DNA of 64,000 nucleotides from a bacterium (GCA_965233585.1 CBDDTI010000747.1:224001-288000), one strand, 5' to 3'. Numbered from the stretch's first letter, positions 8,415 through 55,185 are shown. Notes: a model not told the origin generated them from the sequence alone. A program made the numbers and translations.

Positions 8415-8579
8415 ATGGCTAAGAAAAAAGGGAATCGTGTTTTTGTGAAGATGAAGAGTTCAGAAAGTGGGCATTGTTATTACACAACCAAAAATCGTAA
8501 TATCAACCCCAATCGCTTGGAACTCAGAAAGTATGACCCGCATGTCAGAAGGCATGTGATGTACAAAGAAACAAAATAA
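8415..8579 (+). CDS. rpmG: 50S ribosomal protein L33 (absent from ORF track)
   Basis: [28 protein letters not shown]...[27 protein letters not shown]. Confidence 0.95.
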
Positions 8580-8593
8580 CATCAGGTTGATTT

Positions 8594-8833
8594 ATGTCTA
8601 AAAAGTGTCAGTTGACTGGTAAGAAGCCGTTGGTTGGAAACCATGTCTCTCATGCAAATAATAAGGTGAAGCGCAGGCAGTTACCTAATTTGCAATATAA
8701 GAAAATTTTTGTGGCAGAGCTGAAGCGTTCGGTTCGTTTGAGGCTTTCAACACGTGCCATACGGACGATTGATAAACACGGTTTAATCCCCTATCTCAAA
8801 AAACAAGGGAAGACCTTGAAGGATATTTTATAG
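8594..8833 (+). CDS. rpmB: 50S ribosomal protein L28
   Basis: [10 protein letters not shown]...[20 protein letters not shown]. Confidence 0.95.
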
Positions 8834-8842
8834 AAGATTGTT

Positions 8843-11136: not shown

Positions 11137-11227
11137 TGGCGGAGAGAGAGGGATTCGAACCCTCGGTACCCAGAACAGGTACAACAGATTAGCAATCTGC
11201 CACTTTCGGCCTCTCAGTCATCTCTCC
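11137..11227 (-). tRNA. tRNA-Ser(GCT)
   Basis: Minus strand GGAGAGA acceptor stem, anticodon arm GATT-GCT-AATC, long variable arm, GTTCGAATCC, CCA encoded. Confidence 0.95.
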
Positions 11228-20951: not shown

Positions 20952-22634
20952 ATGTCATTGCTGCACACCACTGCCTATCATTTACTAATTTTCTTCTATA
21001 GATACAGATCTTTTGGTATTTTTTCACTCATCACGCTGGGAGTCATTGCATTAGACATTCTTTTTGAAAAATTAGTTTACCAGAGCTACACCCGTTTTCT
21101 TACAAATACTTTTGACAAGATTGAGGTGTTATCAGAGCTGGATTTGTCCTTTGCTCCTGAAGTGTGGCTCAGTTTGCTCGGCATGGTGTTGGGGACGCTC
21201 ATCATTGTCATCTCTATCGCATCTCAGAGCATTCCCAAGCTGATTGATTTGTATATGGAAGACATATACAGCTTATGCTACGTCTGGCTTTTGATTGTCT
21301 CCAGCGCCCATGTCGTGATTATCAAGTTGTATGGTGAAATTGACGTCGTCAGGGAGTCAAGCCGTGTCTTTAATATCCATATTCTGTTGCCCATCTGCAT
21401 TGCACTTGCGTTTCCTTACATTTACTACATTCTCAAATATACCAAACCAGACAACGTCATTAGCAAAATCTTTCACAGTTGCCGAAAAAATATTGACAAT
21501 TTAACTCATGCAACTGTCCAACAACGTCTCAGCTCTCCTACTTACCTAGAAAATTTTCAATACTATCTATTTGACGCACTCAATCAACTGGACGACCTCC
21601 TTGAGTATGTCTCTTTCAAAGAACCCAAAGCAGATATTGTCTATCGCATTAGCGAATTGACACGTGAATATATCAAGACCAAGCCAGACATTCCTAAAGT
21701 TTTTTTCAAAATCTCTCCCCGTGTCCAGCTTGATATTTCTTTCCGCACTATGACAGGACAGTTTTTGGAAATGGAGAAGCAAAATAATTTTTATGAACAA
21801 AAATGTTTGAGTGTTTTGGGCAACATTTACATCAATTTTCTTGAAGAAAAATACTTTGACCTTGCCTCTTTGTGTGCCTCTGAACATGTAGAAATTGCTA
21901 AAGTGGCGATTGAAATGGAAGACCATCATGTCATTGACACATTGATCGTTCGTTTCAATACACTTCTGCGGTTTGGAATCAAACATGGCTTAAAAAACAG
22001 CGAACCAAGAAACTTGTATAACGCTATTTTTTACTATGGAAGTTTTGTAGAGTGGCTTGCAAGGGCAGGAATGGTGGACTCTGTCAAAAAAGCGTTTACA
22101 TACTTTAGGATTTATGGCAATGAAGTCTATAAACATGGGTCCATTGTGCCAACAATGTACTTCATCGTTGATGTCTTTGCAGTAGAGATGAAGAAGACTC
22201 TCATTTTTGCCCATGAAAATTCGTGGTCTCCTGAAGTTCAAAGTCAATTATTGAAAGAATTTTTGATGATTGACATGCCCCCAGACTTAGGAAAAAAAGA
22301 CATCAACATCAAAGTTCTTGCCAACAGTGGAACAAGAATTTTGCAGATTGCTCTGTCTCTTCATTTTCTGAAGCATGGACAAAACGAATTTGCAGGTAAA
22401 ATTTTTGATGATTTACTTGATGACCTTGAGATTATGGGCGAGGCTCTCTTTCGCCAAACCATCACTAATTCGTGCAATCGCTTGCAATTTTCTGGTCCCA
22501 CATTTTGGGAATATACCGACCGTGGTAACATGAACATGTATTACACACCAGACCAAGACCAAATTGAAAAATTTCGTGCCTTGATGAACGCCAAAGCAGA
22601 TTTTAAGTTGAAAAAGAAAGCCCAATCTGCATGA
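20952..22634 (+). CDS. DUF2254-like membrane protein
   Basis: N-terminal TMs with IVISIASQSIPKLIDLY followed by a long helical soluble region. Confidence 0.55.
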   Translation: MSLLHTTAYHLLIFFYRYRSFGIFSLITLGVIALDILFEKLVYQSYTRFLTNTFDKIEVLSELDLSFAPEVWLSLLGMVLGTLIIVISIASQSIPKLIDLYMEDIYSLCYVWLLIVSSAHVVIIKLYGEIDVVRESSRVFNIHILLPICIALAFPYIYYILKYTKPDNVISKIFHSCRKNIDNLTHATVQQRLSSPTYLENFQYYLFDALNQLDDLLEYVSFKEPKADIVYRISELTREYIKTKPDIPKVFFKISPRVQLDISFRTMTGQFLEMEKQNNFYEQKCLSVLGNIYINFLEEKYFDLASLCASEHVEIAKVAIEMEDHHVIDTLIVRFNTLLRFGIKHGLKNSEPRNLYNAIFYYGSFVEWLARAGMVDSVKKAFTYFRIYGNEVYKHGSIVPTMYFIVDVFAVEMKKTLIFAHENSWSPEVQSQLLKEFLMIDMPPDLGKKDINIKVLANSGTRILQIALSLHFLKHGQNEFAGKIFDDLLDDLEIMGEALFRQTITNSCNRLQFSGPTFWEYTDRGNMNMYYTPDQDQIEKFRALMNAKADFKLKKKAQSA

Positions 22635-22868
22635 AATGAAACTCTACTTTCAACTCTCTAAATCCAAATCTCATCTTCATCTGACAATTCCCTCCTCTTT
22701 TCAAACACCTCTCTTTTTTTCCTCACTCTTGAGTCCCAAGCCATGAGTCATCTCCCCATGGTTCATCAAAAAATCCTCTTCAACTCAAAAACTCAAAATC
22801 AAACATTCTCACCTCGTGAGAATGCGACTTCAGCATCATGTCCTTGCATGTTTCAGTTTGGCATACAC

Positions 22869-22885
22869 TTGGCATAATGGTTGCT
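22869..22885 (+). promoter_or_regulatory. Sigma54 (-24/-12) promoter
   Basis: TTGGCATAATGGTTGCT = GG-N10-GC with TGGCA/TTGC consensus, about 26 nt before ATG 22912. Confidence 0.7.
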
Positions 22886-22911
22886 TATTTACAATTCAAT
22901 CAAACCAAACT

Positions 22912-23130
22912 ATGAAACTTTCTTTAAGCAAACTAGTTATCATTTTCATTTTAGTCATCGTTGCCATTCTTGCCCTGCACCCAGAATTGACAGAAGAAAG
23001 CCAGATGCTGCAACTCGGTTTAAGTCAGTTATGGGTCAGCCTTCAAGAAGTGGGTCAAGTACTTTGGGAAATGGGAGAATCTGTTGCAGAAATTTTTAAG
23101 TTTTTGTGGAATAAATATATTTCTAATTAA
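22912..23130 (+). CDS. Small hypothetical membrane protein
   Basis: MKLSLSKLVIIFILVIVAILAL plus amphipathic helix; follows the sigma54 site. Confidence 0.65.
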   Translation: MKLSLSKLVIIFILVIVAILALHPELTEESQMLQLGLSQLWVSLQEVGQVLWEMGESVAEIFKFLWNKYISN

Positions 23131-23150
23131 TTATAAGTAATGAGGTCAAT

Positions 23151-23558
23151 ATGAATCCAGTTAAACGCTCATATCAGTTTCGGATACTGGTGAATTTTCG
23201 GGTGAGCCCTAATATCAATCTTCCAATTTTAGTTGATAGAATCCGTTGGGAAGAGATGATGAGTGTTGCAGATTCTGCATGTATGGAGGCACAGTGCCGA
23301 TTTTTAGATTTAGCACACCATGAGAATCAGCTGACATTGTTGATTGCCTTAAAAAAATCAGACTTACACTCTACTTTAGATCAGCTGGAGGTAGAGTTTA
23401 ACAGGAAAATGAAATCGGTGATCCAGCCCCTAGAAGAACATTTCATGGGTGGAAGCTTTTTTGAGGAAATTGCTTGTTCTAGTGCTGATGCAGACGGTGC
23501 CACATCTTTGCCCAAAAAAGCATCATACCAAAAACAAAAAGAAGCAGTCCCTAGCTGA
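23151..23558 (+). CDS. Hypothetical protein resembling an inactivated IS200/IS605 TnpA (Y1) fold; ends at an in-frame UGA
   Basis: GAGG SD; ACMEAQCRFLDLAHHENQLTLLI and LEVEFNRKMKSVIQPLEEHFMGGSFF match TnpA motif spacing by eye, HUH replaced by QLT. Confidence 0.55.
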   Translation: MNPVKRSYQFRILVNFRVSPNINLPILVDRIRWEEMMSVADSACMEAQCRFLDLAHHENQLTLLIALKKSDLHSTLDQLEVEFNRKMKSVIQPLEEHFMGGSFFEEIACSSADADGATSLPKKASYQKQKEAVPS

Positions 23559-23981
23559 AGAGAAACCAATCCCCAACAGCAGTGGTATGCTCTCATTGGT
23601 TTGATTTCGTCATACGCATTCCATCACGACCAAGCAGACACTGTTGCAGGAATCAACCAAGACTGGTGTCATCAAACTCTCCAAACACTGCTGAACATCT
23701 GTTCTGAAAACCACAAGTCTTTGTTAGATACCATTTCAGAACTACTAGAATTTAATACTCTTGTCAAAACAGGAATGATCTCTCCAGAAGGAAACCCCCC
23801 TCCTGATTTAGAAGATATTGCAAAACACATCTGGCGTGAATGCCAAGACAAATCTTTTGTTGAAACTCTCCAATTTCTCATCAATCAAAGAAAAATGATG
23901 CTGCAAGAGTTATCGGACTCTGTCAACGTTCTAAGCCAGAAAACACAAGCCATTTCCATTGAAAATCTTTGTCAAATTTAA
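23559..23981 (+). CDS. In-frame continuation of 23151-23558 (helical hypothetical domain); ORF track starts it at TTG 23601
   Basis: Same frame, open from the codon after TGA 23556-23558 to TAA 23981; no SD before TTG 23601. Confidence 0.55.
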   Translation, partial: RETNPQQQWYALIGLISSYAFHHDQADTVAGINQDWCHQTLQTLLNICSENHKSLLDTISELLEFNTLVKTGMISPEGNPPPDLEDIAKHIWRECQDKSFVETLQFLINQRKMMLQELSDSVNVLSQKTQAISIENLCQI

Positions 23982-23990
23982 TTGATTTAT

Positions 23991-24004
23991 TTGATAAATT
24001 TCAA
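23991..24004. promoter_or_regulatory. Possible FNR/CRP-family box upstream of act operon
   Basis: TTGAT-AAAT-TTCAA, one mismatch to TTGAT-N4-ATCAA, but in very AT-rich DNA. Confidence 0.3.
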
Positions 24005-24100
24005 AATAAATTTGAATTTATGTGTTGCACTTTTTTTCAATATTCTTTTTAATATCCGTTTTCGTTTTAAAAATCCTATCCTTTTAAAGCAGTTAGATTT

Positions 24101-24868
24101 ATGAAGAGAAAAGCGTATTGGCTCTTTTTTATTTCATTCTCACTTTTGCTGGGAGCATTATCCAGTGTTCATGCACAAGAGATGTCTGCTCAACCACAAG
24201 CTGTACCAGCACATGCCGTTGAACAGCCCATCGCATTTAGTCATCAGTTGCATGCCACAGAAAATCAGACTCCCTGTCAATATTGCCATATTTACGCAAG
24301 ACGTTCTTCGTCTTCTGGTGTTCCATCGGTGAACATTTGTATTGGTTGTCATGGAACGAAGCAAATGCCCATCATCGCACCCGATTCTGCTGAAGTTGCT
24401 AAACTTCGTGATTATTGGGACAAGCAAGAGCCAATTCCTTGGCAAAAAGTGCATGACGTGCCTGACTTCGTGAGGTTTCCTCATAAATCCCATATCAACG
24501 CCAGTCCAACACGTTTTGTTGAAGGAGCAGAAAGTGCTTGCGACCCCAATCAAGATTCACGTTCCACAGCGTGTATGATTAAACTGTTCAAGCAAGGTGG
24601 AGACACGAGATGTCAAGCCTGCCACGGAAACATTGCAAGTATGCCTGTTGTCTATCAAGTAGATGAGAATTTTGCTGACATGGGGTGGTGTCTGAATTGT
24701 CATTTACAAGTCAAAGGAGCTAAAGCCCGCAAATCATTGACAAGCACTATGGGGGCTTGGTTTAACTTCCAAGAAGAAGAAAAACAAAGGCTCAAGAACA
24801 TGGCTTTGCTCAACCCCAAAGGGTATCACAACCCCAACATTTCTGACTGTGCTGCTTGTCATTACTAG
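24101..24868 (+). CDS. actA: Alternative complex III pentaheme cytochrome c
   Basis: Five CxxCH motifs (CQYCH, CIGCH, CQACH, CLNCH, CAACH), QPIAFSH, PDFVRFPH, MGWC. Confidence 0.88.
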   Translation: MKRKAYWLFFISFSLLLGALSSVHAQEMSAQPQAVPAHAVEQPIAFSHQLHATENQTPCQYCHIYARRSSSSGVPSVNICIGCHGTKQMPIIAPDSAEVAKLRDYWDKQEPIPWQKVHDVPDFVRFPHKSHINASPTRFVEGAESACDPNQDSRSTACMIKLFKQGGDTRCQACHGNIASMPVVYQVDENFADMGWCLNCHLQVKGAKARKSLTSTMGAWFNFQEEEKQRLKNMALLNPKGYHNPNISDCAACHY

Positions 24869-24879
24869 GAGTTAAATTG

Positions 24880-27819
24880 ATGAAAAGAGGATTAAGCAGA
24901 AGAAATTTATTAAAGTATGCAGGTTTAAGCGGGGCGTCTGCTGTTGCGGCAGGTTGTCAAAATGAACCTGAAAAGATTATTCCTTTACTTATTCCACCCA
25001 ACGAGTTTGAGTATGTTCCCCAACAAGCATACCAATACATGACCACTTGTCATGAATGTTCTGCAGGTTGTGGAATGATGGTCACCGTGCGTGAAGGTCG
25101 TGCGCAGAAAGCAGAGGGTAACCCTCTTCACCCCATTAACAAAGGTGCATTGTGTTCTCACGGGCAAGCATCTATGCAGGCTCTCTACAACCCTGAACGG
25201 CTACCTTTGCCTTTGAAAAAAGGAGGTGAGCAAACAGATTGGGACACTGCACTCAAGTTGTTCCAAGAGAAAGTCAAAGCATCTCAAGGGAAAATTGCTT
25301 ATGTCAGCTCCAATTTGACTGCCACCAAAAAGAAGTTTGTGAGCCAGTGGCTTACAGAAGTTGGAGGTCGGCATGTCGTTTTTGAACTCTTTCAGCCTGA
25401 TAGTCTGAAGCAGGCTAATGAAATTGCCTTCGGTCAAGCTCAAGTGCCTGTTTTTGCCTTTGAAGAGGCAGAGTATCTTTTGAACTTTGGTGCAGACTTC
25501 GTTGAAAGTTGGGGGTCCTCAAGCGAGCATTCCAGACGCTTTGCACAAATGAGACTTCACACCAAAGAACATCATAAAGTCAAATATGTTCATGCCAGCC
25601 CCCATGTCTCTTTGACTGGTGCGCAGTCTGACGAGTGGGTGCCGATTAAGCCCGGAACTGAAGGCTTGATGGCATTAGCTCTTGCCTATGAAGTGCGTCA
25701 AGCCAAAGGAGGTTATGAATTTTTGCAGGAATATCTTGAACGATACACACCAGACAAAGTTGCCTCAAAGATAGGAATTGACGCCAAACGCATTCGTGAA
25801 ATTGCCCAAGAAATTATCAAAGCATCTCCCAGTTTGATTCTTGGCGGGGGTAATTTAGTGGCATCAGAACATGGTGTCTCAACATTAGTAGCAGTGAATA
25901 TCTTGAACGCAGTCGCTGGCAATCTAGGTAGAACCGTCAGATTCACTGACAACGTTTCAGAAGACGATAATTCATACAAAATTCAAAACTTAATTCAAGA
26001 TTTAGAACAATCTCAAATAGATTTGGTCATCTTTGATGAGGTCAATCCCGTTTATGCCTTGCCCAAATCTGCTAACTTTGAAGCGCTGCTCAAAAAAACT
26101 TTCACTGTCAGCCTCTGTTCTGCAAAATCAGAGACTGCACATGTTTCGGATTTAGTACTTGCGACGTTGACACCTTATGAGACGTGGGGCGATGCAGAAG
26201 TCCGTGATGGAGTACGCAGCATCTCTCAGCCTGTCATGGCGCCAGTTGATGTTTTCAATGCAAAAGCAACAGAAGAAATTTTACTTTCAACAGCCAAGAC
26301 GATAGGACTGGAATCGTTTGTCAATATTCCAACTTACTTGGCATACCTACAAAGCGAATGGAAAGCACTCAGCCCTGACCAAACTGATGCAGGATTCAGA
26401 AGTTTTTGGATTTCTGTTTTAGAAAATGGAGGAATCTTCAGAGAAACCAGAGAGAGTGATGTAGAACTGCTTGAAAATGTTCTCTCATTTCAGCCTCAAG
26501 AAGTGTCTTTAGAAGGCGACGGCTTTGCATTTTTACCTCTGCCTTCACCCATGTTAGGAGACGGAAGCGGTGCAAACAAACCTTGGCTTCAAGAGGTGCC
26601 AGACCCAATGAGTCAGATTGTTTGGGACTCTTGGCTAGAAATCAACCCTGACACTGCAAAAAGCCTCAAGATAGGTGATCGTGATGTTGTGGAAGTTTCA
26701 ACACCTTATGGCGCTTTGACTTTAACTGCATATTACCATTTTGGCATTCATCGGGAGGCTGTTGGTATTCAAATTGGTCAAGGTCATACTAACTCCGGTG
26801 TAGTTGCAGACGGGTTTGGTGTCAATGCCCTAGATTTACTGCCTTATCAGCATGACAAAGTTTCTGGTGGCTTTTCATTTTTGTCGGTGAAAGCTCAAGT
26901 CAAGAAAATCCCCAAAAAATCATACACTGTGAACATGGACGGCAATGCCCGTCAATTAGGGAGAGAGATTGCTGTCTCCATCACTTTAGAAGAACTGAAA
27001 AAAGGAAAGACTTATAAGAAGGGACACAAACGACCTGTTGAATTTTACCCCGAACGTGCTAAGACTGCGGGGTATTACAAGCCGTATCGCTGGGGAATGG
27101 TCATTGATTTAGACCGTTGTGATGGTTGTTCTGCCTGTGTTGTTGCCTGTTATGCAGAAAATAATATTCCCGTCGTCGGTAAGGAAAGAATGGCACTAGG
27201 ACGAGAAATGTCTTGGTTGAGAATGGAACGTTACATTGAAGGCTTTGGAGACAATTTTGAAGTCCGCTTCATTCCAATGGGTTGCCAGCATTGCGAAAAT
27301 GCAGGTTGTGAAACCGTCTGTCCTGTCTATGCCACATATCACAACCCAGAAGGATTGAATATCCAAGTTTACAATCGCTGTGTTGGGACACGTTATTGTT
27401 CTAACAACTGTGCATACAAAGTCAGACGATTTAATTGGTTTCAATATGATTTTCCTGCTCCCTTAGACCAACAACTCAATAGTTCCATCACCACACGTGA
27501 CATGGGAGTCATGGAAAAATGCACATGGTGTGTGCAAAGAATCAAAGAGGCTCAATATCAAGCGAAAAAACTCAATAGAGATGTGCTAGATGGAGAAGTT
27601 GTTACAGCATGCCAACAAACCTGTGCCACCAATGCTATTACTTTTGGAAACTTGGCAGACCCTGAAAGCCGTGTCTCACAACTAGCCAAACGTAGAAAAC
27701 ATGAGGTAGATTCAAGAGACCGTCAATATGAAGTGTTGTCTGAACTCAACTTCAAGCCTGCTGTGACTTATTTGAAAAAAATTAGATTTCGTGAAACAGA
27801 ACCGTTTGGAACACACTAG
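24880..27819 (+). CDS. actB: Alternative complex III molybdopterin-oxidoreductase-like/Fe-S fusion subunit
   Basis: AGGAG SD + ATG 24880, Tat motif SRRNLLK, PWLQEVPDP, CDGCSACVVAC, CQHCENAGCETVCP, RCVGTRYCSNNC, MEKCTWC. Confidence 0.9.
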   Translation: MKRGLSRRNLLKYAGLSGASAVAAGCQNEPEKIIPLLIPPNEFEYVPQQAYQYMTTCHECSAGCGMMVTVREGRAQKAEGNPLHPINKGALCSHGQASMQALYNPERLPLPLKKGGEQTDWDTALKLFQEKVKASQGKIAYVSSNLTATKKKFVSQWLTEVGGRHVVFELFQPDSLKQANEIAFGQAQVPVFAFEEAEYLLNFGADFVESWGSSSEHSRRFAQMRLHTKEHHKVKYVHASPHVSLTGAQSDEWVPIKPGTEGLMALALAYEVRQAKGGYEFLQEYLERYTPDKVASKIGIDAKRIREIAQEIIKASPSLILGGGNLVASEHGVSTLVAVNILNAVAGNLGRTVRFTDNVSEDDNSYKIQNLIQDLEQSQIDLVIFDEVNPVYALPKSANFEALLKKTFTVSLCSAKSETAHVSDLVLATLTPYETWGDAEVRDGVRSISQPVMAPVDVFNAKATEEILLSTAKTIGLESFVNIPTYLAYLQSEWKALSPDQTDAGFRSFWISVLENGGIFRETRESDVELLENVLSFQPQEVSLEGDGFAFLPLPSPMLGDGSGANKPWLQEVPDPMSQIVWDSWLEINPDTAKSLKIGDRDVVEVSTPYGALTLTAYYHFGIHREAVGIQIGQGHTNSGVVADGFGVNALDLLPYQHDKVSGGFSFLSVKAQVKKIPKKSYTVNMDGNARQLGREIAVSITLEELKKGKTYKKGHKRPVEFYPERAKTAGYYKPYRWGMVIDLDRCDGCSACVVACYAENNIPVVGKERMALGREMSWLRMERYIEGFGDNFEVRFIPMGCQHCENAGCETVCPVYATYHNPEGLNIQVYNRCVGTRYCSNNCAYKVRRFNWFQYDFPAPLDQQLNSSITTRDMGVMEKCTWCVQRIKEAQYQAKKLNRDVLDGEVVTACQQTCATNAITFGNLADPESRVSQLAKRRKHEVDSRDRQYEVLSELNFKPAVTYLKKIRFRETEPFGTH

Positions 27820-27837
27820 CCCGAGAGGAAACGCCTT

Positions 27838-29223
27838 ATGAGCATGGTACATTTTTCATATGCCAAAATTAATGATGATTTGCTGGACATGCTGGAACGT
27901 CCAAAGCCTTCCTATTTTTTGCTGGTTCTTGGATTCTTAGCAGCGTTGATGCTTGGCGTTTTAAGTTTAGCAATTCAAGTGGATGTTGGAATTGGCTACA
28001 GTGGGATTAGTCACCCAATCAACTGGGGTGTTTACATCACAAATTTTGTGTTCTGGATTGGGATTGGTCATGCTGGTACATTGATTTCTGCAGTGTTTTA
28101 TTTAACACGCGCCCCGTGGAGAACTGCGATTTATAGAGGAGCAGAAGCCATGACTGTTTTTGCTGTGATGACTGCTGGTATGTTTCCACTTCTACACACA
28201 GGACGCCCTTGGTTGACATATTGGCTTATTCCATACCCTAATCAACGCATGTTGTGGGTGAACTTTAAGTCTCCTCTTGCATGGGACGTGTTTGCAGTTT
28301 CTACATACATGACAGTGTCCATGCTTTTTTTCTTGCTGGGATTGATTCCAGACCTTGCTATCTTGAGAGATGAAGCCATTTTAAGAGGTAAAAAACTGAA
28401 GGCAGCGCTTTATGCACCTTTGGCTCTTGCATGGCGTGGAACAAATCATCAATGGATTCACTACATGCGTGGCTATCTCATTTTTGCTGCGATTGCGACC
28501 CCTCTGGTGTTTTCTGTTCACTCCATTGTGTCTTGGGACTTTGCCATGTCTTCTGTTCCCGGTTGGCACACTACCATTTTTGCACCCTACTTTGTAGCAG
28601 GAGCTATTTTTTCAGGTATGGCAATGGTGATGACTGTTTTGATTCCTGTCCGTGTTGTTTTTGGGTTGGAACATTACATCACAGACCATGTAGTCCAAAG
28701 TGTCTGCCGCGTGATTGTCTTCACCTCTGTCATTGTAGGATACGCTTACGCAACAGAGTTTTTTATTGCATTTTACAGTGGTTCTACCTTTGAAAGAGCC
28801 ATCTTTTACTTCAGACCTTTTGGCGTGATGGCAGGCTGGACTTTGCTGGGAGAACAAGGCATCGGTTTCCCACAGGTTGCATTTTATTTGATGGTTTTTT
28901 GCAATGTCATTGCCCCAATTCCTTTGTGGCGTTGGAAGGTTCGCAACAATCTGATTGCCGTTTGGATTATCTGCGGTTTGATCAATGTTGGCATGTGGTT
29001 TGAGCGATTTAACATTGTCGGCAGTTCGCTACAACGTGAGTTTCTACCTCATTCTTGGGGTTCTTACTGGCCTACCATCGTAGAATTTGGAATCACTGTT
29101 GGCAGTTTTGGACTCTTTTTTACACTCTTTAGTTTATTTGTCAAGGCATTGCCACCTATGGCGATTATGGAATTGAAAGAGGCGGCACACCCACCAATGA
29201 AAAATAAGGAAGCTCATGAATAA
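27838..29223 (+). CDS. actC: Alternative complex III NrfD/PsrC-like quinol-binding subunit
   Basis: NFVFWIGIGHAGTLISA, HTGRPW, SPLAWDVFAV, SVHSIVSWDFA, GMWFERF. Confidence 0.92.
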   Translation: MSMVHFSYAKINDDLLDMLERPKPSYFLLVLGFLAALMLGVLSLAIQVDVGIGYSGISHPINWGVYITNFVFWIGIGHAGTLISAVFYLTRAPWRTAIYRGAEAMTVFAVMTAGMFPLLHTGRPWLTYWLIPYPNQRMLWVNFKSPLAWDVFAVSTYMTVSMLFFLLGLIPDLAILRDEAILRGKKLKAALYAPLALAWRGTNHQWIHYMRGYLIFAAIATPLVFSVHSIVSWDFAMSSVPGWHTTIFAPYFVAGAIFSGMAMVMTVLIPVRVVFGLEHYITDHVVQSVCRVIVFTSVIVGYAYATEFFIAFYSGSTFERAIFYFRPFGVMAGWTLLGEQGIGFPQVAFYLMVFCNVIAPIPLWRWKVRNNLIAVWIICGLINVGMWFERFNIVGSSLQREFLPHSWGSYWPTIVEFGITVGSFGLFFTLFSLFVKALPPMAIMELKEAAHPPMKNKEAHE

Positions 29224-29731
29224 ATTTATTTGGGCAGTTTTTGAAAATTTAGATGAAACTTGCCAAGCCGTCAAAGAAATTCGTAAAGAAGGGAATACAC
29301 CGACTGTCATTTCTCCATGCCCCAGACATGAGATAGATCACGCTTTGGGTGACCCCCAAAGCAGACTGCCTTTCATCTCTTTGTTTTTCGGAGCGTTGGG
29401 CTGTTTTACGGGTTACAGCTTTGTAGCATGGACAGCAGCTGATTGGGTACTGCCCGTCAGTGGCAAGCCGATTATTACCATTCCTCCTTTTACCATTGTC
29501 GGTTTTGAGTTGACCATCTTATTCACAGCATTGTTCACACTTGCAGGTATGGTGATTTTAGGCATCATTGATTCTGTCAAACACCCATTACCAAAAGGGG
29601 CTAAGTTTTATCCTCGTTTTCAAAGAGACCGCTTTGGTGTCGTCATTTCTTGTGAAGAAAGTAGCGTTCCCAAATTTCAACAGACGCTTGAAAAAAATGG
29701 AGCAGAGGAGGTACATGTTGAAAGTCAATAG
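29216..29731 (+). CDS. actD: Alternative complex III subunit D (DUF3341)
   Basis: Two TMs, VSGKP, FELTILF, DRFGV, GAEEV; position in operon. Confidence 0.88.
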   Translation: MNKFIWAVFENLDETCQAVKEIRKEGNTPTVISPCPRHEIDHALGDPQSRLPFISLFFGALGCFTGYSFVAWTAADWVLPVSGKPIITIPPFTIVGFELTILFTALFTLAGMVILGIIDSVKHPLPKGAKFYPRFQRDRFGVVISCEESSVPKFQQTLEKNGAEEVHVESQ

Positions 29732-30395
29732 TTTGAAATTAGTTTTAATTTTCTGCTCATTTGTAATCTTTTCTGTCAGTTGGGCAGACCCTAAAAATAA
29801 TCCTTACAATGACCCCAACAAAGGGTCAAAAGATGGCAAAGGATATGGATTTAAAGATGATGCTCGCCCTTGGTTTGATGGCAAAGACTACCCCTTTTAC
29901 AGAGACATGTACGATGGTAAAAGCATCAAAGCTCAGGAAGAAGGGACTTATCAGAATTTTCCTACTCAATCTGTCCCTGTCAGTTTTCAGCTTGGAAAGA
30001 TTAAAAAAATCTATGAGCCTCTCGTGCCCATAGCAGAACGTTCAGTCAGTCCTGTCAACCCTCACCCTGCAACCCCAGAGTCTATTGCTAGAGGTCAAGT
30101 TCTATATGAGACCTATTGTGCTGTTTGTCATGGCAAGACAGGGAATGCGGAGTCACCTGTTGCAGAAAAAGCAAAAAAATATAGCTGGATCATTACACCC
30201 ATTTCAGCCTTGCTACCTGTGCTTTCTGAATCTCATCTTTATAATAAAATTCGTTATGGAAGTGCATATAATTTGGGGGATACCTATCAGCTTATACCTA
30301 GAACCATGCCCGCTTATGGAATGCAAACTTCTTCCAAAGATCGTTGGGACATAGTTAATTACATGAAAAGTCAAAGATTTGGAAAAAAGGATTGA
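29715..30395 (+). CDS. actE: Alternative complex III monoheme cytochrome c
   Basis: GGAGG SD + ATG 29715, signal peptide, CAVCH, MPAY, DRWDIVNYM. Confidence 0.85.
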   Translation: MLKVNSLKLVLIFCSFVIFSVSWADPKNNPYNDPNKGSKDGKGYGFKDDARPWFDGKDYPFYRDMYDGKSIKAQEEGTYQNFPTQSVPVSFQLGKIKKIYEPLVPIAERSVSPVNPHPATPESIARGQVLYETYCAVCHGKTGNAESPVAEKAKKYSWIITPISALLPVLSESHLYNKIRYGSAYNLGDTYQLIPRTMPAYGMQTSSKDRWDIVNYMKSQRFGKKD

Positions 30396-30398
30396 TTG

Positions 30399-31676
30399 AT
30401 GAAGTCTATCGTAGAAAAGTCGGGATTTGAAATTAACCCAACATCTAAAACGGTGTTGGTTTCGTTTATGGTTCTTGCAGGAGTTGCCTTCACGGGTAGC
30501 TTAATTTTTGGAGGACAAGAGCTTGTTCGTAGGTCATGGCAGATTTTGTTGATTAACACTGTCTTTTGGGGGGGACTTTCTCAAGCTGGGGTGATTTGGG
30601 CAGTCGCATGGCAAATCACAGATGCCAAATGGGCAAGACCGTTCAAGAGAATAGGAGAGGCATTTGGTGCATTCTTGCCAGTCTCTTTTGTGATGTTTAT
30701 TTTGATCTTTTTTGGCATGAGCATTCTCTATGAGTGGACGCATACGCCTTTCTTCCATCACGGAGTCGCAGTCAAAGTTGGTTGGTTAAACATGCCTTTT
30801 TTTGTGAGTCGTAACATTTTTTGGCTTCTTCTAATGTATGGTGTCTCCTTTTTCTTTTTGTATGCTTCATGGCGTCCTGACTTTGGGTTAGCAAACAAAT
30901 TGACTCCAAATTGGGGGGGCAGTTTTGCCAAAAAATTCCTTAAAAATTACCCCCAAAATCATGAAAATGAAGTCATTAGACTGGAAGCATTGTCTAGGAA
31001 AATTGCCCCAACGCTAGCAATCATCTATGGAATTGGTGGGTCTTTTCTGGCATGGGATTACATTATGACACTGGATCAAGAATGGTTTAGCACCCTTTTT
31101 GGGGTCTTTATCTTAATTGGTAGCATGCAAGCGGCATTGGGAATTATGATTGCGGTGGCTGTGACTATCAGAGACAAATTTCAGTTGCAAGATTACATCA
31201 CCATCAATCGCCTGCATGATTTAGCCAAGTTGATCTTTGCCTTCTCTTTGCTTTGGACTTACATGGCATTTTCACAATATTTAGTCATCTGGTATGCGGA
31301 TTTGGCAGAAGAAACTCCTTTTGTCATCATTCGTTCCACAGAACAACCTTGGCAAACGATGTTTGTGATGCTTTTTGTCTGGTTGTTTGTTTCCGTCTTC
31401 TTGCTGTTACTTCCAAAAACTTTTTGTAGGAATCCAAATTTTATCCGCATCATGGGAGTTTATGTTGCAGTTGGGCAATGGCTTTCAATCTATCTTTTAG
31501 TTGTGCCATCAATTCAGGAATACGGTCATTATCAAATTGATTTTGGTTTGACTGAAATCATTGTGACATTAGGGTTTGTTGGGGCATTTTTCCTTTGCTT
31601 CCTAAATTGTCTCCGAAAACTTCCTCTCCTCCCCATCTCAGACAAGCATCTTTGCAAAACATGGCACGGTCATTGA
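30399..31676 (+). CDS. actF: Alternative complex III membrane subunit F
   Basis: GWLNMPFF, DYIMTLDQEWFSTLFG, HDLAKLIFAF, FSQYLVIWY..AEE. Confidence 0.88.
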   Translation: MKSIVEKSGFEINPTSKTVLVSFMVLAGVAFTGSLIFGGQELVRRSWQILLINTVFWGGLSQAGVIWAVAWQITDAKWARPFKRIGEAFGAFLPVSFVMFILIFFGMSILYEWTHTPFFHHGVAVKVGWLNMPFFVSRNIFWLLLMYGVSFFFLYASWRPDFGLANKLTPNWGGSFAKKFLKNYPQNHENEVIRLEALSRKIAPTLAIIYGIGGSFLAWDYIMTLDQEWFSTLFGVFILIGSMQAALGIMIAVAVTIRDKFQLQDYITINRLHDLAKLIFAFSLLWTYMAFSQYLVIWYADLAEETPFVIIRSTEQPWQTMFVMLFVWLFVSVFLLLLPKTFCRNPNFIRIMGVYVAVGQWLSIYLLVVPSIQEYGHYQIDFGLTEIIVTLGFVGAFFLCFLNCLRKLPLLPISDKHLCKTWHGH

Positions 31677-31802
31677 TGCTTTATCGGTCTTCAATCTCTT
31701 GATTTCTGCCTTCCATTTAATCCCACTGTTATTGTTGGTTTAGAATTTGTCGTGTCTCAGTTAGAATGTGACAGACAAATTTACGGCACTTAATGTAAAA
31801 AT

Positions 31803-31819
31803 CTGGAACTTATTTTGCA
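31803..31819 (+). promoter_or_regulatory. Sigma54 promoter upstream of fliF
   Basis: CTGGAACTTATTTTGCA = GG-N10-GC, about 40 nt before the fliF ATG. Confidence 0.65.
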
Positions 31820-31860
31820 TTGATTTTTGCAATTTCTTTGACCTCAACCAGTTTTAAAAA

Positions 31861-33471
31861 ATGGCAGAAAAAGTAAGCGCGATTCAGGACGTTCGTTCTC
31901 AATTCACCCAGTTTTTCAACTCTTTAAGTTTAGGCAAACGCATTGGTCTGGTTGCTTCATTAGGCACCATCTTTGTTGGAATGCTGATCTTCGTGGTCTT
32001 TGCACGACAAGACACGTGGGCTCCTTTGTACAGCAACCTTGACCCAACAGATGCTGCAAGACTGGTAGAAAAACTCCAAGAGAACCAAATCAACTATATG
32101 CTGGCACCCGGTGGACGTACTGTCATGGTACAGCCAAACAACGTGGATAGAGCTAGATTGATGCTTGCACGTGAGAAAGTTTTGCCCGGTAGTGGGGTTG
32201 GTTTTTTAGATTTGTTCTCAAAGCCAGAGCTAGGCGCCACAGAATTTGACCAACAAGTGAAGTTCCGTGTTGCACAAGAAGGAGAGCTTGCACGGCTCAT
32301 TACACGAATCAACACCATTAAAAGTGCGAGGGTTTCGCTTGCCTTACCAAAGAAAACGATTTTTAAAGACTCACAAGAACAAGCAACGGCATCAGTTTCT
32401 CTTGAAACACATGGTGATTTAGATCGTTCTCAAATTGAAACAGTGATTCATCTGGTTGCCAGTGCCGTAGAGGGATTAAGACCCAATTCTGTCAGAGTCA
32501 CAGACCAGTATGGAAAGTTGCTAAGCAATCAATTTTCAGAAGATGGCGGTTCAGGCAAGATTTCTGAAAATTATGCCTATAAAAGACGTTACGAAAAGGA
32601 GCTTGAGCAAAAATTATTGAATCAGCTTGAACCGATTATTGGAGTAGATCGTGTCAGAGTTTTGGTTTCTGCAGAAATTGATTTTGACAGGCAAAAAATT
32701 CAAGACAATCTTATTGACCCCGACCAATTAGTCACCATCAGTGAGCAGTTAGTCAATGAAAATTCTGTTGGTTCTCGCTCATTGCCAGTTGGTCCTGCAG
32801 GGGTTACTTCTAATTTACCTGAAGCGACAGGAAGGGAAGCCGCTACTGTTTCTGAACATGATAAGAAAAATTCTACACGCAATTTTGAAGTCAGCCGTTC
32901 GCAAGTCATCAAAGAACGTGCAATCGGACAACTCAAAAGGCTCACCGTTTCTGTCTTAGTTGACCATAAACACCCCCCATTACTTGATGATTCAGGCAAC
33001 ATCATCGGTCGTCAAAACGTCCCCTGGACTACATCAGAAAAAGACCAAATTGGAAACCTTGTTAAAGCCGCCATCGGTTTTTCAACAGAGAGAAAAGATG
33101 AGGTGGTTGTAGAAAATATCCCCTTTGGAAAACCTGTTGAAGAAGATGTGCAAGCACAAATTGAAGAGGCAGAAAGGACTCGTGCATTTATTATGAACAT
33201 TGTCCGTTATGTCTTGTTGGGCATTGCCATCTTGCTACTCATCTTGCTTGTCATTAGACCAATGGTTCAAAGATTGAGTGCCAAACCTGCTGACCTTGAT
33301 TTGCTTATGGGACTCCCTGCAACCATTGGAGAACTGGAAGGTGAAGAGTTAGAAATTCCCACAGAACGCGAGGCTGGCATTCCATCACGGGATAAAATTA
33401 TTGAGATTGCAAGGCAGGATGTTCTCAAAACCGCCACCATGGTTCGTGCGTGGCTTCGTGAAAGGAAGTAG
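31861..33471 (+). CDS. fliF: Flagellar MS-ring protein
   Basis: PLYSNL..DAA, GATEFDQQV, EGELAR.I, HLVASAVEGL, GPAGVTSNLP, RLTVSVLVD. Confidence 0.95.
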   Translation: MAEKVSAIQDVRSQFTQFFNSLSLGKRIGLVASLGTIFVGMLIFVVFARQDTWAPLYSNLDPTDAARLVEKLQENQINYMLAPGGRTVMVQPNNVDRARLMLAREKVLPGSGVGFLDLFSKPELGATEFDQQVKFRVAQEGELARLITRINTIKSARVSLALPKKTIFKDSQEQATASVSLETHGDLDRSQIETVIHLVASAVEGLRPNSVRVTDQYGKLLSNQFSEDGGSGKISENYAYKRRYEKELEQKLLNQLEPIIGVDRVRVLVSAEIDFDRQKIQDNLIDPDQLVTISEQLVNENSVGSRSLPVGPAGVTSNLPEATGREAATVSEHDKKNSTRNFEVSRSQVIKERAIGQLKRLTVSVLVDHKHPPLLDDSGNIIGRQNVPWTTSEKDQIGNLVKAAIGFSTERKDEVVVENIPFGKPVEEDVQAQIEEAERTRAFIMNIVRYVLLGIAILLLILLVIRPMVQRLSAKPADLDLLMGLPATIGELEGEELEIPTEREAGIPSRDKIIEIARQDVLKTATMVRAWLRERK

Positions 33472-33477
33472 GATTTT

Positions 33478-34488
33478 ATGCTAGATTCGCTCAATGTTAA
33501 ATCGTTTACCCCTTTAGATTTTTCTGAAGAACAGGTCGTAGAAGAAGAGAAGCCTGACATTTCTCATTTTACATTAGACCAGTTTGACCCCCACCAAGAG
33601 GTCACAGAACATGAAAAAGTGGAGCAACTCATCAAAACGTCGCAAGAGTTTACAAACGAAAAATTTATTCAGCAAGCAGACCTTTTAAGTGATGCAGCGC
33701 TTTATGCTGAAAACATTCGCAAAGGTGGTCAGCTGGAGGTAGAGAAGCTCAAAAAACAAGTGTCCATAGAACTTGAAAATGCTAAAAAAGACAGAGAACA
33801 AGCAGAAAGTATTCTTGAAAAAACCAAGCTGCAATGCGAAGCCATGCTTGAAGACGCAAGGAAAGAAGCAGAAGAAATCAGAAGCATTGCCAAAGAAGAA
33901 GGCTTTATTGAAGGAGAAGAAGCAGGTCGCCTGCAAAGCCACGAAACACTTGAAAAAGAGATTAAAAACTTTGAGAATCTTCTATTGCAATTTTCTCAAC
34001 TCAGGTCAGAAGTTTTGTTTCAAGCAGAAGAAGAATTACTACAACTTGCTATGCTTGTTGTTCGTAAAATCATGTATCAAGAAGTTTCCACTGACCCTGA
34101 AGTCGTTTTAAACATTGTCAAATCTTCTCTCCAAGAAATTGAATCTAAAGGAAGGATTGTTGTCTCCTTGCATCAAGATGATTACCAGTTTATGACACAA
34201 TACCATGACACTCTTGATAAATATCTTAAAGAAGAACAAATGATCGTCTTGCGGGAAGATGTAGATTCACAACCCGGTCAGGTGACCATTGAAACCAATG
34301 AAACTGTGGTTCATTTTGACTTCAAAGACCAGATCAATAGGATAGAAAGTAGCTTGTTCCAAAAACTCTCTCAACGAAAGCAAATGCTTCAAGACACCCT
34401 CGCTAAACAACACCATTCAGAGCAGACTCCTCAAGACACCCCTCAGACAGAAGAATCTTTAGAAACAAATGACAAACCTACTGAGTGA
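33478..34488 (+). CDS. fliH: Flagellar assembly protein FliH
   Basis: Coiled coil with AKEEGFIEG..AG repeats, FliH-like C-terminus, directly before fliI. Confidence 0.85.
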   Translation: MLDSLNVKSFTPLDFSEEQVVEEEKPDISHFTLDQFDPHQEVTEHEKVEQLIKTSQEFTNEKFIQQADLLSDAALYAENIRKGGQLEVEKLKKQVSIELENAKKDREQAESILEKTKLQCEAMLEDARKEAEEIRSIAKEEGFIEGEEAGRLQSHETLEKEIKNFENLLLQFSQLRSEVLFQAEEELLQLAMLVVRKIMYQEVSTDPEVVLNIVKSSLQEIESKGRIVVSLHQDDYQFMTQYHDTLDKYLKEEQMIVLREDVDSQPGQVTIETNETVVHFDFKDQINRIESSLFQKLSQRKQMLQDTLAKQHHSEQTPQDTPQTEESLETNDKPTE

Positions 34489-35782
34489 ATACCACACGGA
34501 AGCCAAGCGGTTCCGTGAAATTCAGGTGCAAGGTAAAATTACCCAGATGGTCGGTCAAATGATTGAAGCATACAATCCCGGTTGTGCCATTGGCAATTTG
34601 TGTAGTATTGTTGACCCCGTTGACAGCACCTCTTTTTTGGCAGAAGTCGTTGGCTTCAAAGAGGATAAGATGCTCCTCACTGCATTAGAAAATGTGCAGG
34701 GCATCAACCCCAAATGCCGTGTCATTCCGCAACACCTGCCCCCTCAAATCTGTGTTGGAGAAGAGCTTTTAGGACGTGTTTTTGACCCTCTCTATCGTCC
34801 CTTGGATCGCGCAGGAGATGTGATTGCTAACTCCAGTGTCCCCATTTACCGAGACCCTCCTAATCCTATGGAACGAGAACGCATTACATCAGCTTTGGAC
34901 GTTGGAATCCGTGCAATCAATTCCTGTTTAACATGTGGCAAAGGACAACGTGTTGGGATTTTGGCAGGGTCTGGGGTCGGTAAATCTGTCTTGATTGGCA
35001 TGATGGCACGTTATACCAGTGCTGATGTCAACGTCATTGCACTCATTGGTGAACGTGGTCGTGAGGTCAGGGATTTTATTGAACGTGACTTGGGCAAAGA
35101 AGGAATGAAAAAGACGATTGTTGTCGTCGCTACTTCTGACCAACCCCCTTTGTTGAGAATGCGAGGAGCATACGTCGCTACTGCCATCTCTGAATATTTT
35201 AGGGAACAAGGCAAAGATGTGCTGTTGGTCATGGACTCATTGACACGATTTGCGATGGCACAACGAGAAATTGGTCTGGCAGCAGGAGAACCTCCAACCA
35301 CCAAAGGCTATCCGCCTTCTGTTTTTGCATCACTACCGGGATTGCTTGAACGGGCAGGAACAGACAATCACGGTGGCTCTATTACAGGATTCTACACAGT
35401 GCTTGCAGAAGGTGATGACTCCAATGACCCGATTGTAGATTCTGTCCGTGCCATTGTAGATGGGCATATTGTGCTCAGTCGGGACATTGCCGCAAAAGGA
35501 CATTATCCTGCCATTGACATTTCTACCTCTGCCAGCCGTGTCATGTCTGATGTCGTCTCTTCTACACACCAAAAATTAGCATTAGCACTGCGAGGGTCTC
35601 TTGCCTCTTACCGAGAAGCAGAAGATTTAATCAACATCGGTGCTTATGTCAGTGGAAGCAATCCTGAAATTGACGACGCTGTTGCCAAACGTCCACAAAT
35701 CCAAAAATTCTTGCAACAAGGAATTGACGAAAAGACAAGCTATGCTGAATCCGTCGCAGGATTACAGCATATTTTTAATTGA
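34469..35782 (+). CDS. fliI: Flagellar export ATPase
   Basis: AGSGVGKS, LIGERGREV, MDSLTRFAMAQREIG, GHYPAID. Confidence 0.95.
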   Translation: MTNLLSEYHTEAKRFREIQVQGKITQMVGQMIEAYNPGCAIGNLCSIVDPVDSTSFLAEVVGFKEDKMLLTALENVQGINPKCRVIPQHLPPQICVGEELLGRVFDPLYRPLDRAGDVIANSSVPIYRDPPNPMERERITSALDVGIRAINSCLTCGKGQRVGILAGSGVGKSVLIGMMARYTSADVNVIALIGERGREVRDFIERDLGKEGMKKTIVVVATSDQPPLLRMRGAYVATAISEYFREQGKDVLLVMDSLTRFAMAQREIGLAAGEPPTTKGYPPSVFASLPGLLERAGTDNHGGSITGFYTVLAEGDDSNDPIVDSVRAIVDGHIVLSRDIAAKGHYPAIDISTSASRVMSDVVSSTHQKLALALRGSLASYREAEDLINIGAYVSGSNPEIDDAVAKRPQIQKFLQQGIDEKTSYAESVAGLQHIFN

Positions 35783-35841: not shown

Positions 35842-36091
35842 TTAGTTTTTTGCTGGGGTGCTATTGTGCCATAATTCATGTTCGCTGATGTCTATTTCCT
35901 CTCCCCACGATACTGCATAACCTCCCCTCAACTTTCACAGACTTGAATAAAACAGGGTTTTTTAATGGTTGAAACATTTCCAGTTTCAGCAAGGGCGTCA
36001 CGTCATATTTTTTAGTCTGCTGATTATCAAATTCAATTTTCAAAGTTCGCTTTCCGATTGCTTCAACCTTCTTGATTTTTGGACAATTCAT
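35842..36091 (-). pseudogene. DUF2442-family protein, frameshifted
   Basis: ..LKIEFDN..KKYDVTPLL..FQPLKNP.LFKSVKVE, then a shift near 35925 continues GGYAVSWGEEIDISEHELW..* (stop 35842-35844). Confidence 0.75.
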
Positions 36092-37806
36092 AACCTAATT
36101 AAATTTTGTAAACGCAAAAATTTAAAAAACTCATCCAAAATTCGTTTGTTACGGTCAATGATTTCACTCTCTCCAAATTGAGGATAAGTTATGGAATTGG
36201 AGAGATTGGATATTTCATGGATTTGGCTTGCCCCCTTACTGTAAATTTCCTGCTTATCTTCAAATCTGTAATCCGATGCTTGAATATTTATACGGCGTTC
36301 AAGCAAAATTTTATTTCCCAATAACTCAAGATTGCTTTCTGCTTTTAGTCCTTTCTCTGACTTTTGACGTTTTTTAGAGTAGATATGCTCTAAATGAAAA
36401 TCTTCATTTAACTTAGGAAGTCCCTGATGTGGAAAGGTAAAAGCATACCAAGTTATTATCGAACGAGTCACAGGTTTTTGATTAGTGAAATCATAACTAT
36501 CAAAAGAAGGGCGGGCTTTGTTGACATCAAATTTGTACTTAGAAAATGTTACTTCAACACCGTTTACAATATTAACCATTTCGTCATATATGGGCGTTCG
36601 TAGTGCGTTAACTCCAGGATTGGTAATAGCATAAGCAAAAGTGAAGGCTGTTATTTTATTCAAAAATTGACAGAATTTTGAATTATCTAATGAGCCATCA
36701 GTATCTCTATTTTCTAAAAAATAGACGGATGTTATATTCTGCCACATACTGTTCGGTGAATAGTGCAGCACAAAAAGTTTCTTGAGAATACTATCACAAA
36801 ATCGGTTTTTATCTTGTACAGCTACACTCTCCCAAAATAAAGCGAGAGCCTTCAATTCATCAATTGTATGAGGCTGATTTAGATACCTATATTTATCTCG
36901 TTCGTAGAATTTTCTCAGGGCTTCTGTTGTTGATCTTTTATTACCTTCTTTTGCACGCAAATAGTACATGTAACGAGCAAATAACTCGTCCATCGGTGTA
37001 TTGTTCTGTTTGAATACTGACTTTGTTACTGCTTCTAACTCTTTCCAATCATTGATAAAATCATCTTTCTTATTTAAAGAATCATAGTACTTGTAGAATT
37101 GGGCTTTGAATATGTCCGCATCTGACAAAGGTAAACCACGATCATTGAGAGTTGAGAAAATACGAAGAGCCGTATCTTGTGATTCGGCTTCAATAGGAAG
37201 AAGAATACAGTTGCCTAGAATACGAGCAGGCAGATGGGCGGAGTAAGATGAAAAACATTGTAAAAAGTCATCAATCTTTTTCTGAAAAAATTGATAGTTT
37301 AGAACATATTGACTTTTACTTCCCTTTTTCACTTTCCCAGTACGAAGTAACTCAAGAAATTCTATTTTGTCATGGTCTGTCGCCACTGCAGAATCTATCT
37401 TGAGTATATCTTTATCGGCATTCTCAAATTCATCTACTTTCCAAATACACTTTTCAATACGAGTACGAATCTTTTGCGAGTTATCGTCCTGCATATTTGC
37501 AAACTTATCATAAAAAGCCCGTAAAATAAGCATGATTGTTGTGAGTCGCTGTTGACCATCAATCACCTCCGACTGACTATCTTCGTTTTTATAGGTGACG
37601 ATAGAGCCAAGGAAATACTCTTCATTTTTATCAAACGCTTCACAATTATCATTAGGAAATGAAAATGCAAAGATGTCATCCCACAGAGTTTGACATTGCT
37701 CTTCATCCCAAGCATAGGGTCGCTGATAGTCAGGTATAAGAAAGTCTGCTTTTTTATCTGATAAGAGATTTTCAATTGTTTTTTGATCTACATTTAGTTT
37801 TGACAT
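36088..37806 (-). CDS. DUF262 + DUF1524 (GmrSD/SspE-like) defence nuclease
   Basis: IPDYQRPYAW, VIDGQQRLTT, FSTLNDRGLPL, C-terminal LEHIYS...LGNKILL...N; AAGGA SD + ATG 37806. Confidence 0.85.
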   Translation of the reverse strand: MSKLNVDQKTIENLLSDKKADFLIPDYQRPYAWDEEQCQTLWDDIFAFSFPNDNCEAFDKNEEYFLGSIVTYKNEDSQSEVIDGQQRLTTIMLILRAFYDKFANMQDDNSQKIRTRIEKCIWKVDEFENADKDILKIDSAVATDHDKIEFLELLRTGKVKKGSKSQYVLNYQFFQKKIDDFLQCFSSYSAHLPARILGNCILLPIEAESQDTALRIFSTLNDRGLPLSDADIFKAQFYKYYDSLNKKDDFINDWKELEAVTKSVFKQNNTPMDELFARYMYYLRAKEGNKRSTTEALRKFYERDKYRYLNQPHTIDELKALALFWESVAVQDKNRFCDSILKKLFVLHYSPNSMWQNITSVYFLENRDTDGSLDNSKFCQFLNKITAFTFAYAITNPGVNALRTPIYDEMVNIVNGVEVTFSKYKFDVNKARPSFDSYDFTNQKPVTRSIITWYAFTFPHQGLPKLNEDFHLEHIYSKKRQKSEKGLKAESNLELLGNKILLERRINIQASDYRFEDKQEIYSKGASQIHEISNLSNSITYPQFGESEIIDRNKRILDEFFKFLRLQNLIRL

Positions 37807-37884
37807 TGTTTTTCCTTGTTTTTGAGAAGTTAACAATCAAAATGAATATCGGACTAAAACCAGTCCGTTGGATTTGTTAGGTTT

Positions 37885-55184: not shown

Positions 55185-55185
55185 T

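Follow-up and report, generated by a model that had tools for sequence, protein, structure and literature searches.

An acidic protein with a predicted IS200/IS605 TnpA-like fold but without the catalytic residues, encoded in a conserved three-gene cassette

Results

The locus and its surroundings

The window, by which we mean the whole 64-kb stretch of bacterial DNA analysed here, carries at 23151..23558 on the plus strand a single copy of a gene that encodes a protein of 135 amino acids, as identified by translation and by conservation. It is the second gene of a three-gene cassette and is referred to below as the TnpA-like gene. A Shine-Dalgarno sequence, GAGG, lies at 23142..23145 (+), 5 nt 5' of the ATG, in agreement with the normal Shine-Dalgarno sequence reported by the first-pass annotation of this DNA. 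An ORF of 72 aa (22912-23130) ends 20 nt 5' of the gene and an ORF of 126 aa (23601-23981) begins 42 nt 3' of it, both on the same strand. Promoter- and terminator-like sites near the gene were not meaningfully above shuffled expectation.

An Alternative Complex III operon (24101-31676) starts 119 nt past the 126-aa ORF and encodes a multihaem cytochrome, a molybdopterin/FeS subunit, an NrfD-like subunit, ActD and a cytochrome c. ActA-, ActB-, ActC-, ActD- and ActE-like genes are present and the operon looks complete (stretch 24101-35782); one ORF of 426 aa in it belongs to no family. Directly after the operon, within the same stretch, come the flagellar genes fliF, fliH and fliI. On the 5' side of the cassette are a membrane protein of 560 aa that fits no clear family, and a Na_H_antiport_3 protein.

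Elsewhere in the window, defence-type genes occupy two stretches of low GC content (0.31-0.35), one at 36088-40981 with a GmrSD-like endonuclease and an AIPR-like protein, and the other at 54336-56319 with an N6/N4 DNA methylase and an NgoFVII-like restriction enzyme. A TPP riboswitch at 43060-43154 (-) lies upstream of a solute-binding protein gene (42010-43047). The Rfam model 'Plastid-psbl-rps4' matched 11140-11192 (+) above its gathering threshold, opposite a tRNA at 11140-11227 (-), and was taken as a side-effect of the model because the tRNA covers the same bases.

Relatives and selection

A search space of about 15 billion proteins yielded three relatives of the 135-aa protein, with identities of 78, 74-76 and 40 %. 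Two of them, each of 138 aa, came from a word-indexed search of 5.8 billion clusters (78 % and 74 % identity), and the distant one, P0004 (161 aa, 40 % identity, E 7e-22), came from an exhaustive phmmer search of 1.84 billion representatives. A further phmmer match was a repeat protein and was regarded as noise. The family as used below thus consists of four sequences, namely the window protein, P0002, P0003 and P0004, whose alignment has 45 invariant positions.

The gene for P0004 was placed at 8001-8486 of L018, a contig of a SAR324 metagenome-assembled genome (MAG), where GGAGG precedes the ATG. Between the window gene and this ortholog, synonymous sites are saturated (pS 0.91) and pN is 0.38, a pattern which, judged from the two coding sequences, is that of long divergence under purifying selection. 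The first-pass annotation had recognized the ORF and suggested looking for orthologs under purifying selection; such conserved orthologs exist, and the ORF is a genuine, conserved gene.

A conserved three-gene cassette

New here is a conserved cassette that combines a small membrane protein, a dead TnpA and an acidic helical protein. Gene 1 (22912..23130, +; 72 aa) is 31 % identical (E 1e-11) to L018:7664-7894. Its product has a hydrophobic anchor at the N-terminus (KLVIIFILVIVAILAL) and a Trp-rich helix at the C-terminus, and its HPEL-x-EE motif is conserved. Gene 3 (23601..23981, +; 126 aa) encodes an acidic (pI 4.8), helical protein that is 30 % identical (E 3e-13) to L018:8529-8954 and whose C-terminus is an invariant AISIENLC. 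AlphaFold predicted three helices for it at pLDDT 63, Foldseek with this model gave zero matches at E <= 0.001 and only generic coiled coils, and the Atlas search gave no named family (recognition 1832). Neither gene 1 nor gene 3 was assigned to a family in Pfam, NCBIfam, PADLOC or PHROGs.

The order in L018 is a 76-aa gene (7664-7894), the ortholog of the TnpA-like gene (8001-8486) and a 141-aa gene (8529-8954). When all L018 ORFs of at least 50 aa were compared with the 64-kb window by tblastn, only the three cassette genes matched, in the same order and on the same strand. The L018 flanks hold an FG-GAP repeat protein, a small membrane protein and a cytochrome c/Cu-monooxygenase-like protein and are unrelated to those in the window, so the cassette is the conserved unit and Alternative Complex III lies outside it. 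A profile search with gene 3 among proteins of 69-247 aa returned only the proteins of the window and of the SAR324 MAG. The cassette was read at two loci, the window and the SAR324 MAG, and gene 3 in two of the four family genomes. The gap between genes 1 and 2 is 106 nt in L018 (7895-8000) against 20 nt in the window, and the L018 gap holds an AT-rich palindrome, AAAACATTT-TAA-AAATGTTTT.

Genes 2 and 3 share a reading frame. The TGA of the TnpA-like gene is followed by 42 nt, or 14 sense codons, after which gene 3 begins in the same frame (23556..23600, +). The arrangement at L018 8484-8528 is the same, with one TGA and an equal, stop-free spacer of 42 nt in the same frame, and 11 of 12 nt around the stop are identical between the two (TGAAGAG[A/C]AACC). 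A shared frame in both genomes has a chance of 1 in 9. No shared hairpin of a read-through or SECIS-like kind was found at the TGA (z 0.02 in the window, z -2.8 in L018), and Rfam gave nothing there, at the gathering threshold in the window and at E <= 1 in L018. Given the common frame, the single TGA, the equal spacer and the conserved stop, some read-through of the TGA could give a fusion protein; read-through, or a former fusion of genes 2 and 3, is possible.

Sequence resemblance to TnpA

The resemblance of the 135-aa protein to IS200/IS605 TnpA is weak but consistent at the sequence level, where each signal taken singly falls short of customary significance. Pfam Y1_Tnp (PF01797) matched at 12.2 bits (E 0.2), below its gathering cut-off of 23 bits, with a colinear alignment of residues 34-106 to positions 26-99 of the 121 in the profile. 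Two of the four family members matched Y1_Tnp at E <= 10, the best at E 0.12. No TnpA was found among PDB sequences at E <= 10, either by phmmer with the protein or by hmmsearch with the family profile; the sole match among PDB sequences was a collagen adhesin (E 0.37). Searches of NCBIfam, PADLOC and PHROGs with the cassette proteins brought up nothing meaningful.

Profile comparisons used a reference set of 15 TnpAs, made up of the intact TnpA of IS609 from an E. coli chromosome (P0007) and 14 diverse, annotated plasmid tnpA genes with 24-72 % identity to it. The plasmid genes were taken because the relatives of IS609 TnpA among the 120 matches listed were all at least 79 % identical to it and were thus unfit for a diverse profile. 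The alignment by hhalign of the four-member family with the 15 TnpAs spanned 80 columns (90 without realignment) at E 0.0035 and a probability of 9 %. Its score of 23.7 was above all 300 column shuffles (mean 12.2, sd 2.5, maximum 21.7), and the reversed family alignment scored 18.6; the match exceeds chance. With a profile of the 15 TnpAs, the four members scored 6.6-8.3 bits and their reversed sequences -0.0 to 2.0 bits. A single-sequence hhalign comparison with IS609 TnpA was not significant (E 0.57). The nearest clusters in the language-model search of the ESM-Atlas were Y1_Tnp (score 0.85), and the ten best family-bearing matches all agreed; at scores below 0.9 a third of shuffled proteins also give ten agreeing matches, so this served as a lead only.

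The first-pass annotation had aligned the protein by eye with IS200 TnpA. The spacings that it gave are exact in the translation (C44-x14-N59-Q60-L61-T62-L-L-I and L79-x14-L94-x8-F103-F104, where the string in IS609 TnpA equivalent to the former is C-x14-D-HVHLL), and hhalign pairs the residues column for column. The colinear motifs shared with TnpA are C-x14-[DN]-[HQ]-x-[HT]-LL, L-x14-L-x8-F[FW] and SS-x-GG, the last of which reads SS-x-DADG in the family.

Predicted fold

Structure prediction with AlphaFold2 from the 4-sequence alignment gave a model with pLDDT 72.9 and pTM 0.65, and four of the five models lay at pLDDT 69-73. The predicted elements are beta11-17, alpha24-30, alpha33-46, beta49-57, beta60-67, alpha72-97 and beta108-113, followed by a disordered tail; residues 1-6 and 118-135 are disordered in the model.

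Foldseek against the PDB returned IS200/IS605 TnpA structures for every one of the 21 top-listed chains, which extend to rank 22. The top match had E 5.3e-5, TMq 0.57 and TMt 0.60 over 109 columns, and the aligned length was 109-120 columns. The entries are 2xm3, 2xma, 2ec2, 2vjv, 2xo6, 2a6o, 2vic, 2vju, 2xqc, 2fyx, 2a6m, 2vhg and 2f4f, from ISDra2, Sulfolobus tokodaii, IS608/ISHp608, DR_0177 and IS200. At E <= 0.001, 14 matches were counted; all ten listed chains were TnpA, and the four unlisted ones were more chains from the same entries. The first unrelated fold stood at rank 27, other ferredoxin-like proteins had TM 0.34-0.46, and a clear TM gap separated the TnpA chains from the remaining matches. 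The check set beforehand was whether Foldseek would return a specific HUH/Y1 match or only a generic ferredoxin-like one, and the specific match was returned, which bears out the Y1 or IS200/IS605 TnpA fold that the first-pass annotation had proposed. The model thus suggests that the 135-aa protein keeps the beta-alpha-beta-beta-alpha-beta core of TnpA, with the structure clearer than the sequence here; a TM of about 0.57 is moderate, and the model was built on four sequences.

Loss of the active site

The residues invariant in all 15 reference TnpAs are H69 and H71 of the HUH motif, K90 of the LKG motif, a Trp, a Gly and the catalytic Y135. In the hhalign alignment C44 of the window protein pairs with a helix-1 Cys common in TnpAs, N59 with the Asp that precedes HUH, Q60 and T62 with H69 and H71, E80 with the invariant LKG lysine K90, and F104 with the invariant Trp; SS-x-DADG pairs with the SS-x-GG hinge. 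The HUH site thus corresponds to the codons for Q60-L61-T62 (23328..23336, +), which read QLT, QLT, QLS and GLS in the hhalign and family alignments of the four members. The tail that replaces the catalytic-Tyr helix (residues 118-135; 23502..23555, +) is predicted to be disordered, with pLDDT below 50. The Viterbi hhalign alignment ends at K123 against TnpA Q134, one residue short of Y135. The only tail Tyr near the catalytic position, Y126, is Phe in P0003, and the SAR324 ortholog P0004 has a long, acidic tail without Tyr. C44, C49, D113 and D115 are invariant in all four members.

These results uphold the description in the first-pass annotation of an HUH motif changed to QLT, a lost LKG and a Tyr helix that is at best vestigial: no HUH histidine is present in any of the four members, E80 stands at the place of the invariant lysine, and the disordered tail has no conserved Tyr. 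According to the available text of PMC3333891, the metal required for cleavage is coordinated by the HUH histidines, and the Tyr serves as nucleophile. With both histidines and the Tyr lost, the established mechanism implies that the protein would not carry out the Y1 reaction and would neither cut nor join DNA.

Absence of an insertion sequence, distribution of hairpins and charge

No Y1_Tnp or TnpB family was found among 48 ORF translations of the window at E <= 1e-5, and among the five ORFs around the gene at E <= 10, Y1_Tnp appeared only as the gene's own sub-threshold match. No IS ends or flanking hairpins were found within 22500-24200. The gene therefore stands, as the first-pass annotation had observed, without tnpB and without IS-end hairpins.

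The same annotation had spoken of a genome rich in REP-like hairpins. Such repeats are present in the window as a single cluster at about 2460-4140, about 19 kb from the gene, with no convincing copies elsewhere in the window, which bears out the phrase only in part. Examples are ATTGCGGG-N6-CCCGCAAT at 2522-2543 and, in the same cluster, TTCCTGC-GGAA-GCAGGAA. With a hairpin-repeat model derived from the REP-like repeats, no match within 22500-24200 surpassed E 2.4 and none surpassed E 0.16 in L018, which covers 16 kb on and around the SAR324 ortholog. The hairpins at 2460-4140 flank tandem repeats with spacings of 129, 48 and 81 nt; the tandem repeats encode a coiled-coil-like LEQKATK(D/E)QVS that is interrupted by stops (ORF pieces 3023-3310 and 3677-3802), and 2414-4162 holds no ORF of at least 110 aa.

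The core of the protein (residues 8-117) has a net charge of -7 to -11 and a pI of 4.3-4.9 in all four members, an overall figure with which a local basic DNA-binding patch is still compatible. The pI of the whole protein is 4.2-6.1 across the four members, and all 15 reference TnpAs are basic (pI 8.85-10.0). The SAR324 ortholog has a pI of 4.2 and bears an acidic tail of 40 residues, and both cassette partners of the TnpA-like protein are acidic. The acidic surface suggests that DNA hairpin binding has probably been lost as well. The first-pass annotation had offered a hairpin-binding or scaffold protein; the acidic core of all four members, set against 15 of 15 basic TnpAs, speaks against the hairpin-binding part, and scaffold is the better-fitting word. 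A link to the REP-like hairpins, also part of that proposal, is not supported either, as the repeats lie about 19 kb away and none occurs in the 16 kb surrounding the SAR324 ortholog.

Discussion

The closest known systems are the IS200/IS605 TnpAs (ISDra2, 2XM3; IS608, 2VJV/2A6O; S. tokodaii, 2EC2; IS200, 2F4F), which are of similar size (about 135 aa), have a matching order of secondary-structure elements, give the best structural matches and share a colinear motif spacing that includes the helix-1 Cys and the HUH-bearing strand. Unlike them, the window protein has no HUH, no LKG lysine and no Tyr helix and is acidic rather than basic, and its gene has neither tnpB nor subterminal hairpins and occurs as a single window copy within a cassette. 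TnpAs of this family are obligate dimers whose active sites form in trans. The RAYT/TnpA-REP proteins (E. coli RayT, 4ER8) are likewise encoded by a host-resident Y1-fold gene outside an IS, and the window holds a single copy of the gene described here. RAYTs retain both motifs, HUH and Tyr, and are active nucleases. The window protein differs from them in having neither motif, and its gene in having no flanking REPs. RAYT 4ER8 was also a much poorer Foldseek match (rank 42, TMq 0.45), and hhalign against E. coli RayT was at chance level (E 0.077, 25 columns) and not colinear with the motifs. As to the fixity of a RAYT locus, the flanks in the window and in the SAR324 MAG, the two loci read, are entirely different. 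The available text of PMC3333891, and likewise that of PMC8266576, places RAYTs among the Y1 transposases of the HUH endonuclease family and associates them with REP/BIME.

With HUH, Tyr and IS ends or REP flanks all wanting, the protein appears to share its mode of action with neither an IS200/IS605 TnpA nor a RAYT, and we would class it as a divergent relative of the Y1_Tnp fold rather than as a member. A broader category, that of inactive transposase derivatives with roles as host proteins or inhibitors, embodies the same concept, in that the fold is kept for binding after catalysis is lost. Within the text available from the literature found, no catalytically dead Y1/HUH TnpA-fold family is described in bacteria.

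A transposase fold whose catalytic residues are lost, an acidic character and co-travelling genes together look like recruitment to a job other than DNA cutting. We consider it probable that this dead, acidic Y1-fold protein is an exapted TnpA relative that has no enzymatic role and serves, through protein binding, as a subunit of a small membrane-associated complex. The ancestor would have been an IS200/IS605 Y1 transposase, with the likeness due to descent rather than convergence. The beta-alpha-beta-beta-alpha-beta core would have been kept while the HUH histidines and the Tyr-bearing C-terminal helix were lost, leaving a protein that neither cuts nor joins, and the acidic surface would probably have ended DNA hairpin binding. 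The gene is inherited as the middle one of the cassette, between those for a single-pass membrane protein and an acidic helical protein, and these two proteins may form with the TnpA-like protein a small complex, held together by protein binding and anchored by the membrane protein of gene 1. A candidate contact site is the invariant S-x-D-A-D-G-x-x-S-[LI]-P after the last strand, where predicted order is low. More tentatively, and with appreciable doubt, a Y1 transposase in SAR324-like bacteria may have been recruited as the core of a three-protein membrane-associated module that works purely through protein contacts.

A rather unlikely alternative is that the protein is not transposase-derived at all, being an unrelated alpha/beta sandwich whose likeness to TnpA is convergent or an AlphaFold artefact of a shallow alignment. 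The beta-alpha-beta-beta-alpha-beta sandwich is a common fold, which leaves convergence some probability; the Pfam match is sub-threshold, the hhalign probability is 9 %, the sequence searches of the PDB were blank for TnpA, the model comes from four sequences, and other ferredoxin-like proteins enter the Foldseek list from rank 27. Yet the same family emerges from four different methods. The alignment runs colinearly through 80-90 columns, with spacing that agrees motif by motif, its score lies above every one of the 300 shuffles, and TnpA accounts for each of the 21 best listed Foldseek chains, with a clear TM gap behind them. We also regard as unlikely a nuclease-dead TnpA that still binds hairpins of ssDNA or RNA, such as the REP-like ones of the same genome. 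In IS608 and ISDra2 TnpA the core domain binds subterminal hairpins independently of catalysis; the TnpA fold is retained here, and REP-like hairpins exist in the window, as at 2522-2543. Against this stand the acidic core of all four members (net -7 to -11) beside 15 basic TnpAs, the 40-residue acidic tail of the SAR324 ortholog (pI 4.2), the confinement of the repeats to about 2460-4140 with none better than E 0.16 in L018, and a gene without flanking hairpins. The acidic core, together with the absence of REP-like hairpins near the gene and in L018, favours a protein-binding role.

That the protein is still an enzyme, using the C44/C49 pair or the acidic DADG cluster for new chemistry or metal binding, seems very unlikely. 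C44, C49, D113 and D115 are indeed unchanged in all four members, and C44 matches the common helix-1 Cys of TnpA, but the active site has no conserved histidine or tyrosine; we know of no precedent. The loss of the catalytic motifs would also suit a decaying IS200/IS605 remnant, a pseudogene whose frame is open by chance, and published phylogenomics removed Y1 sequences that lacked HuH and Y, treating them as pseudogenes, a classification given in the available part of PMC6006769. This reading is close to refuted and of the least probability: the ORFs are intact and of similar length in four genomes, down to 40 % identity and with synonymous change saturated, the start, the Shine-Dalgarno sequence and the neighbours are conserved, 45 residues are invariant, and neither IS ends nor tnpB were found.

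Conclusions

It is well established that transposases can be domesticated, as DDE enzymes have been and, in bacteria, the RAYTs. If the recruitment of a Y1 transposase into a three-protein module based purely on protein contacts is true, it would be the first bacterial exaptation of the Y1 fold that is both catalytically dead and non-DNA-binding. The impact of the finding is limited by the size of the family, which has four sequences. Phylogenomic surveys of the superfamily were restricted to sequences that have HuH and Y, as the available part of PMC6006769 sets out, and since sequences without them were set aside, families of this kind would be missed. If the exaptation proposed here is true, the small fold of a ssDNA transposase would be reusable as a plain structural or binding module.
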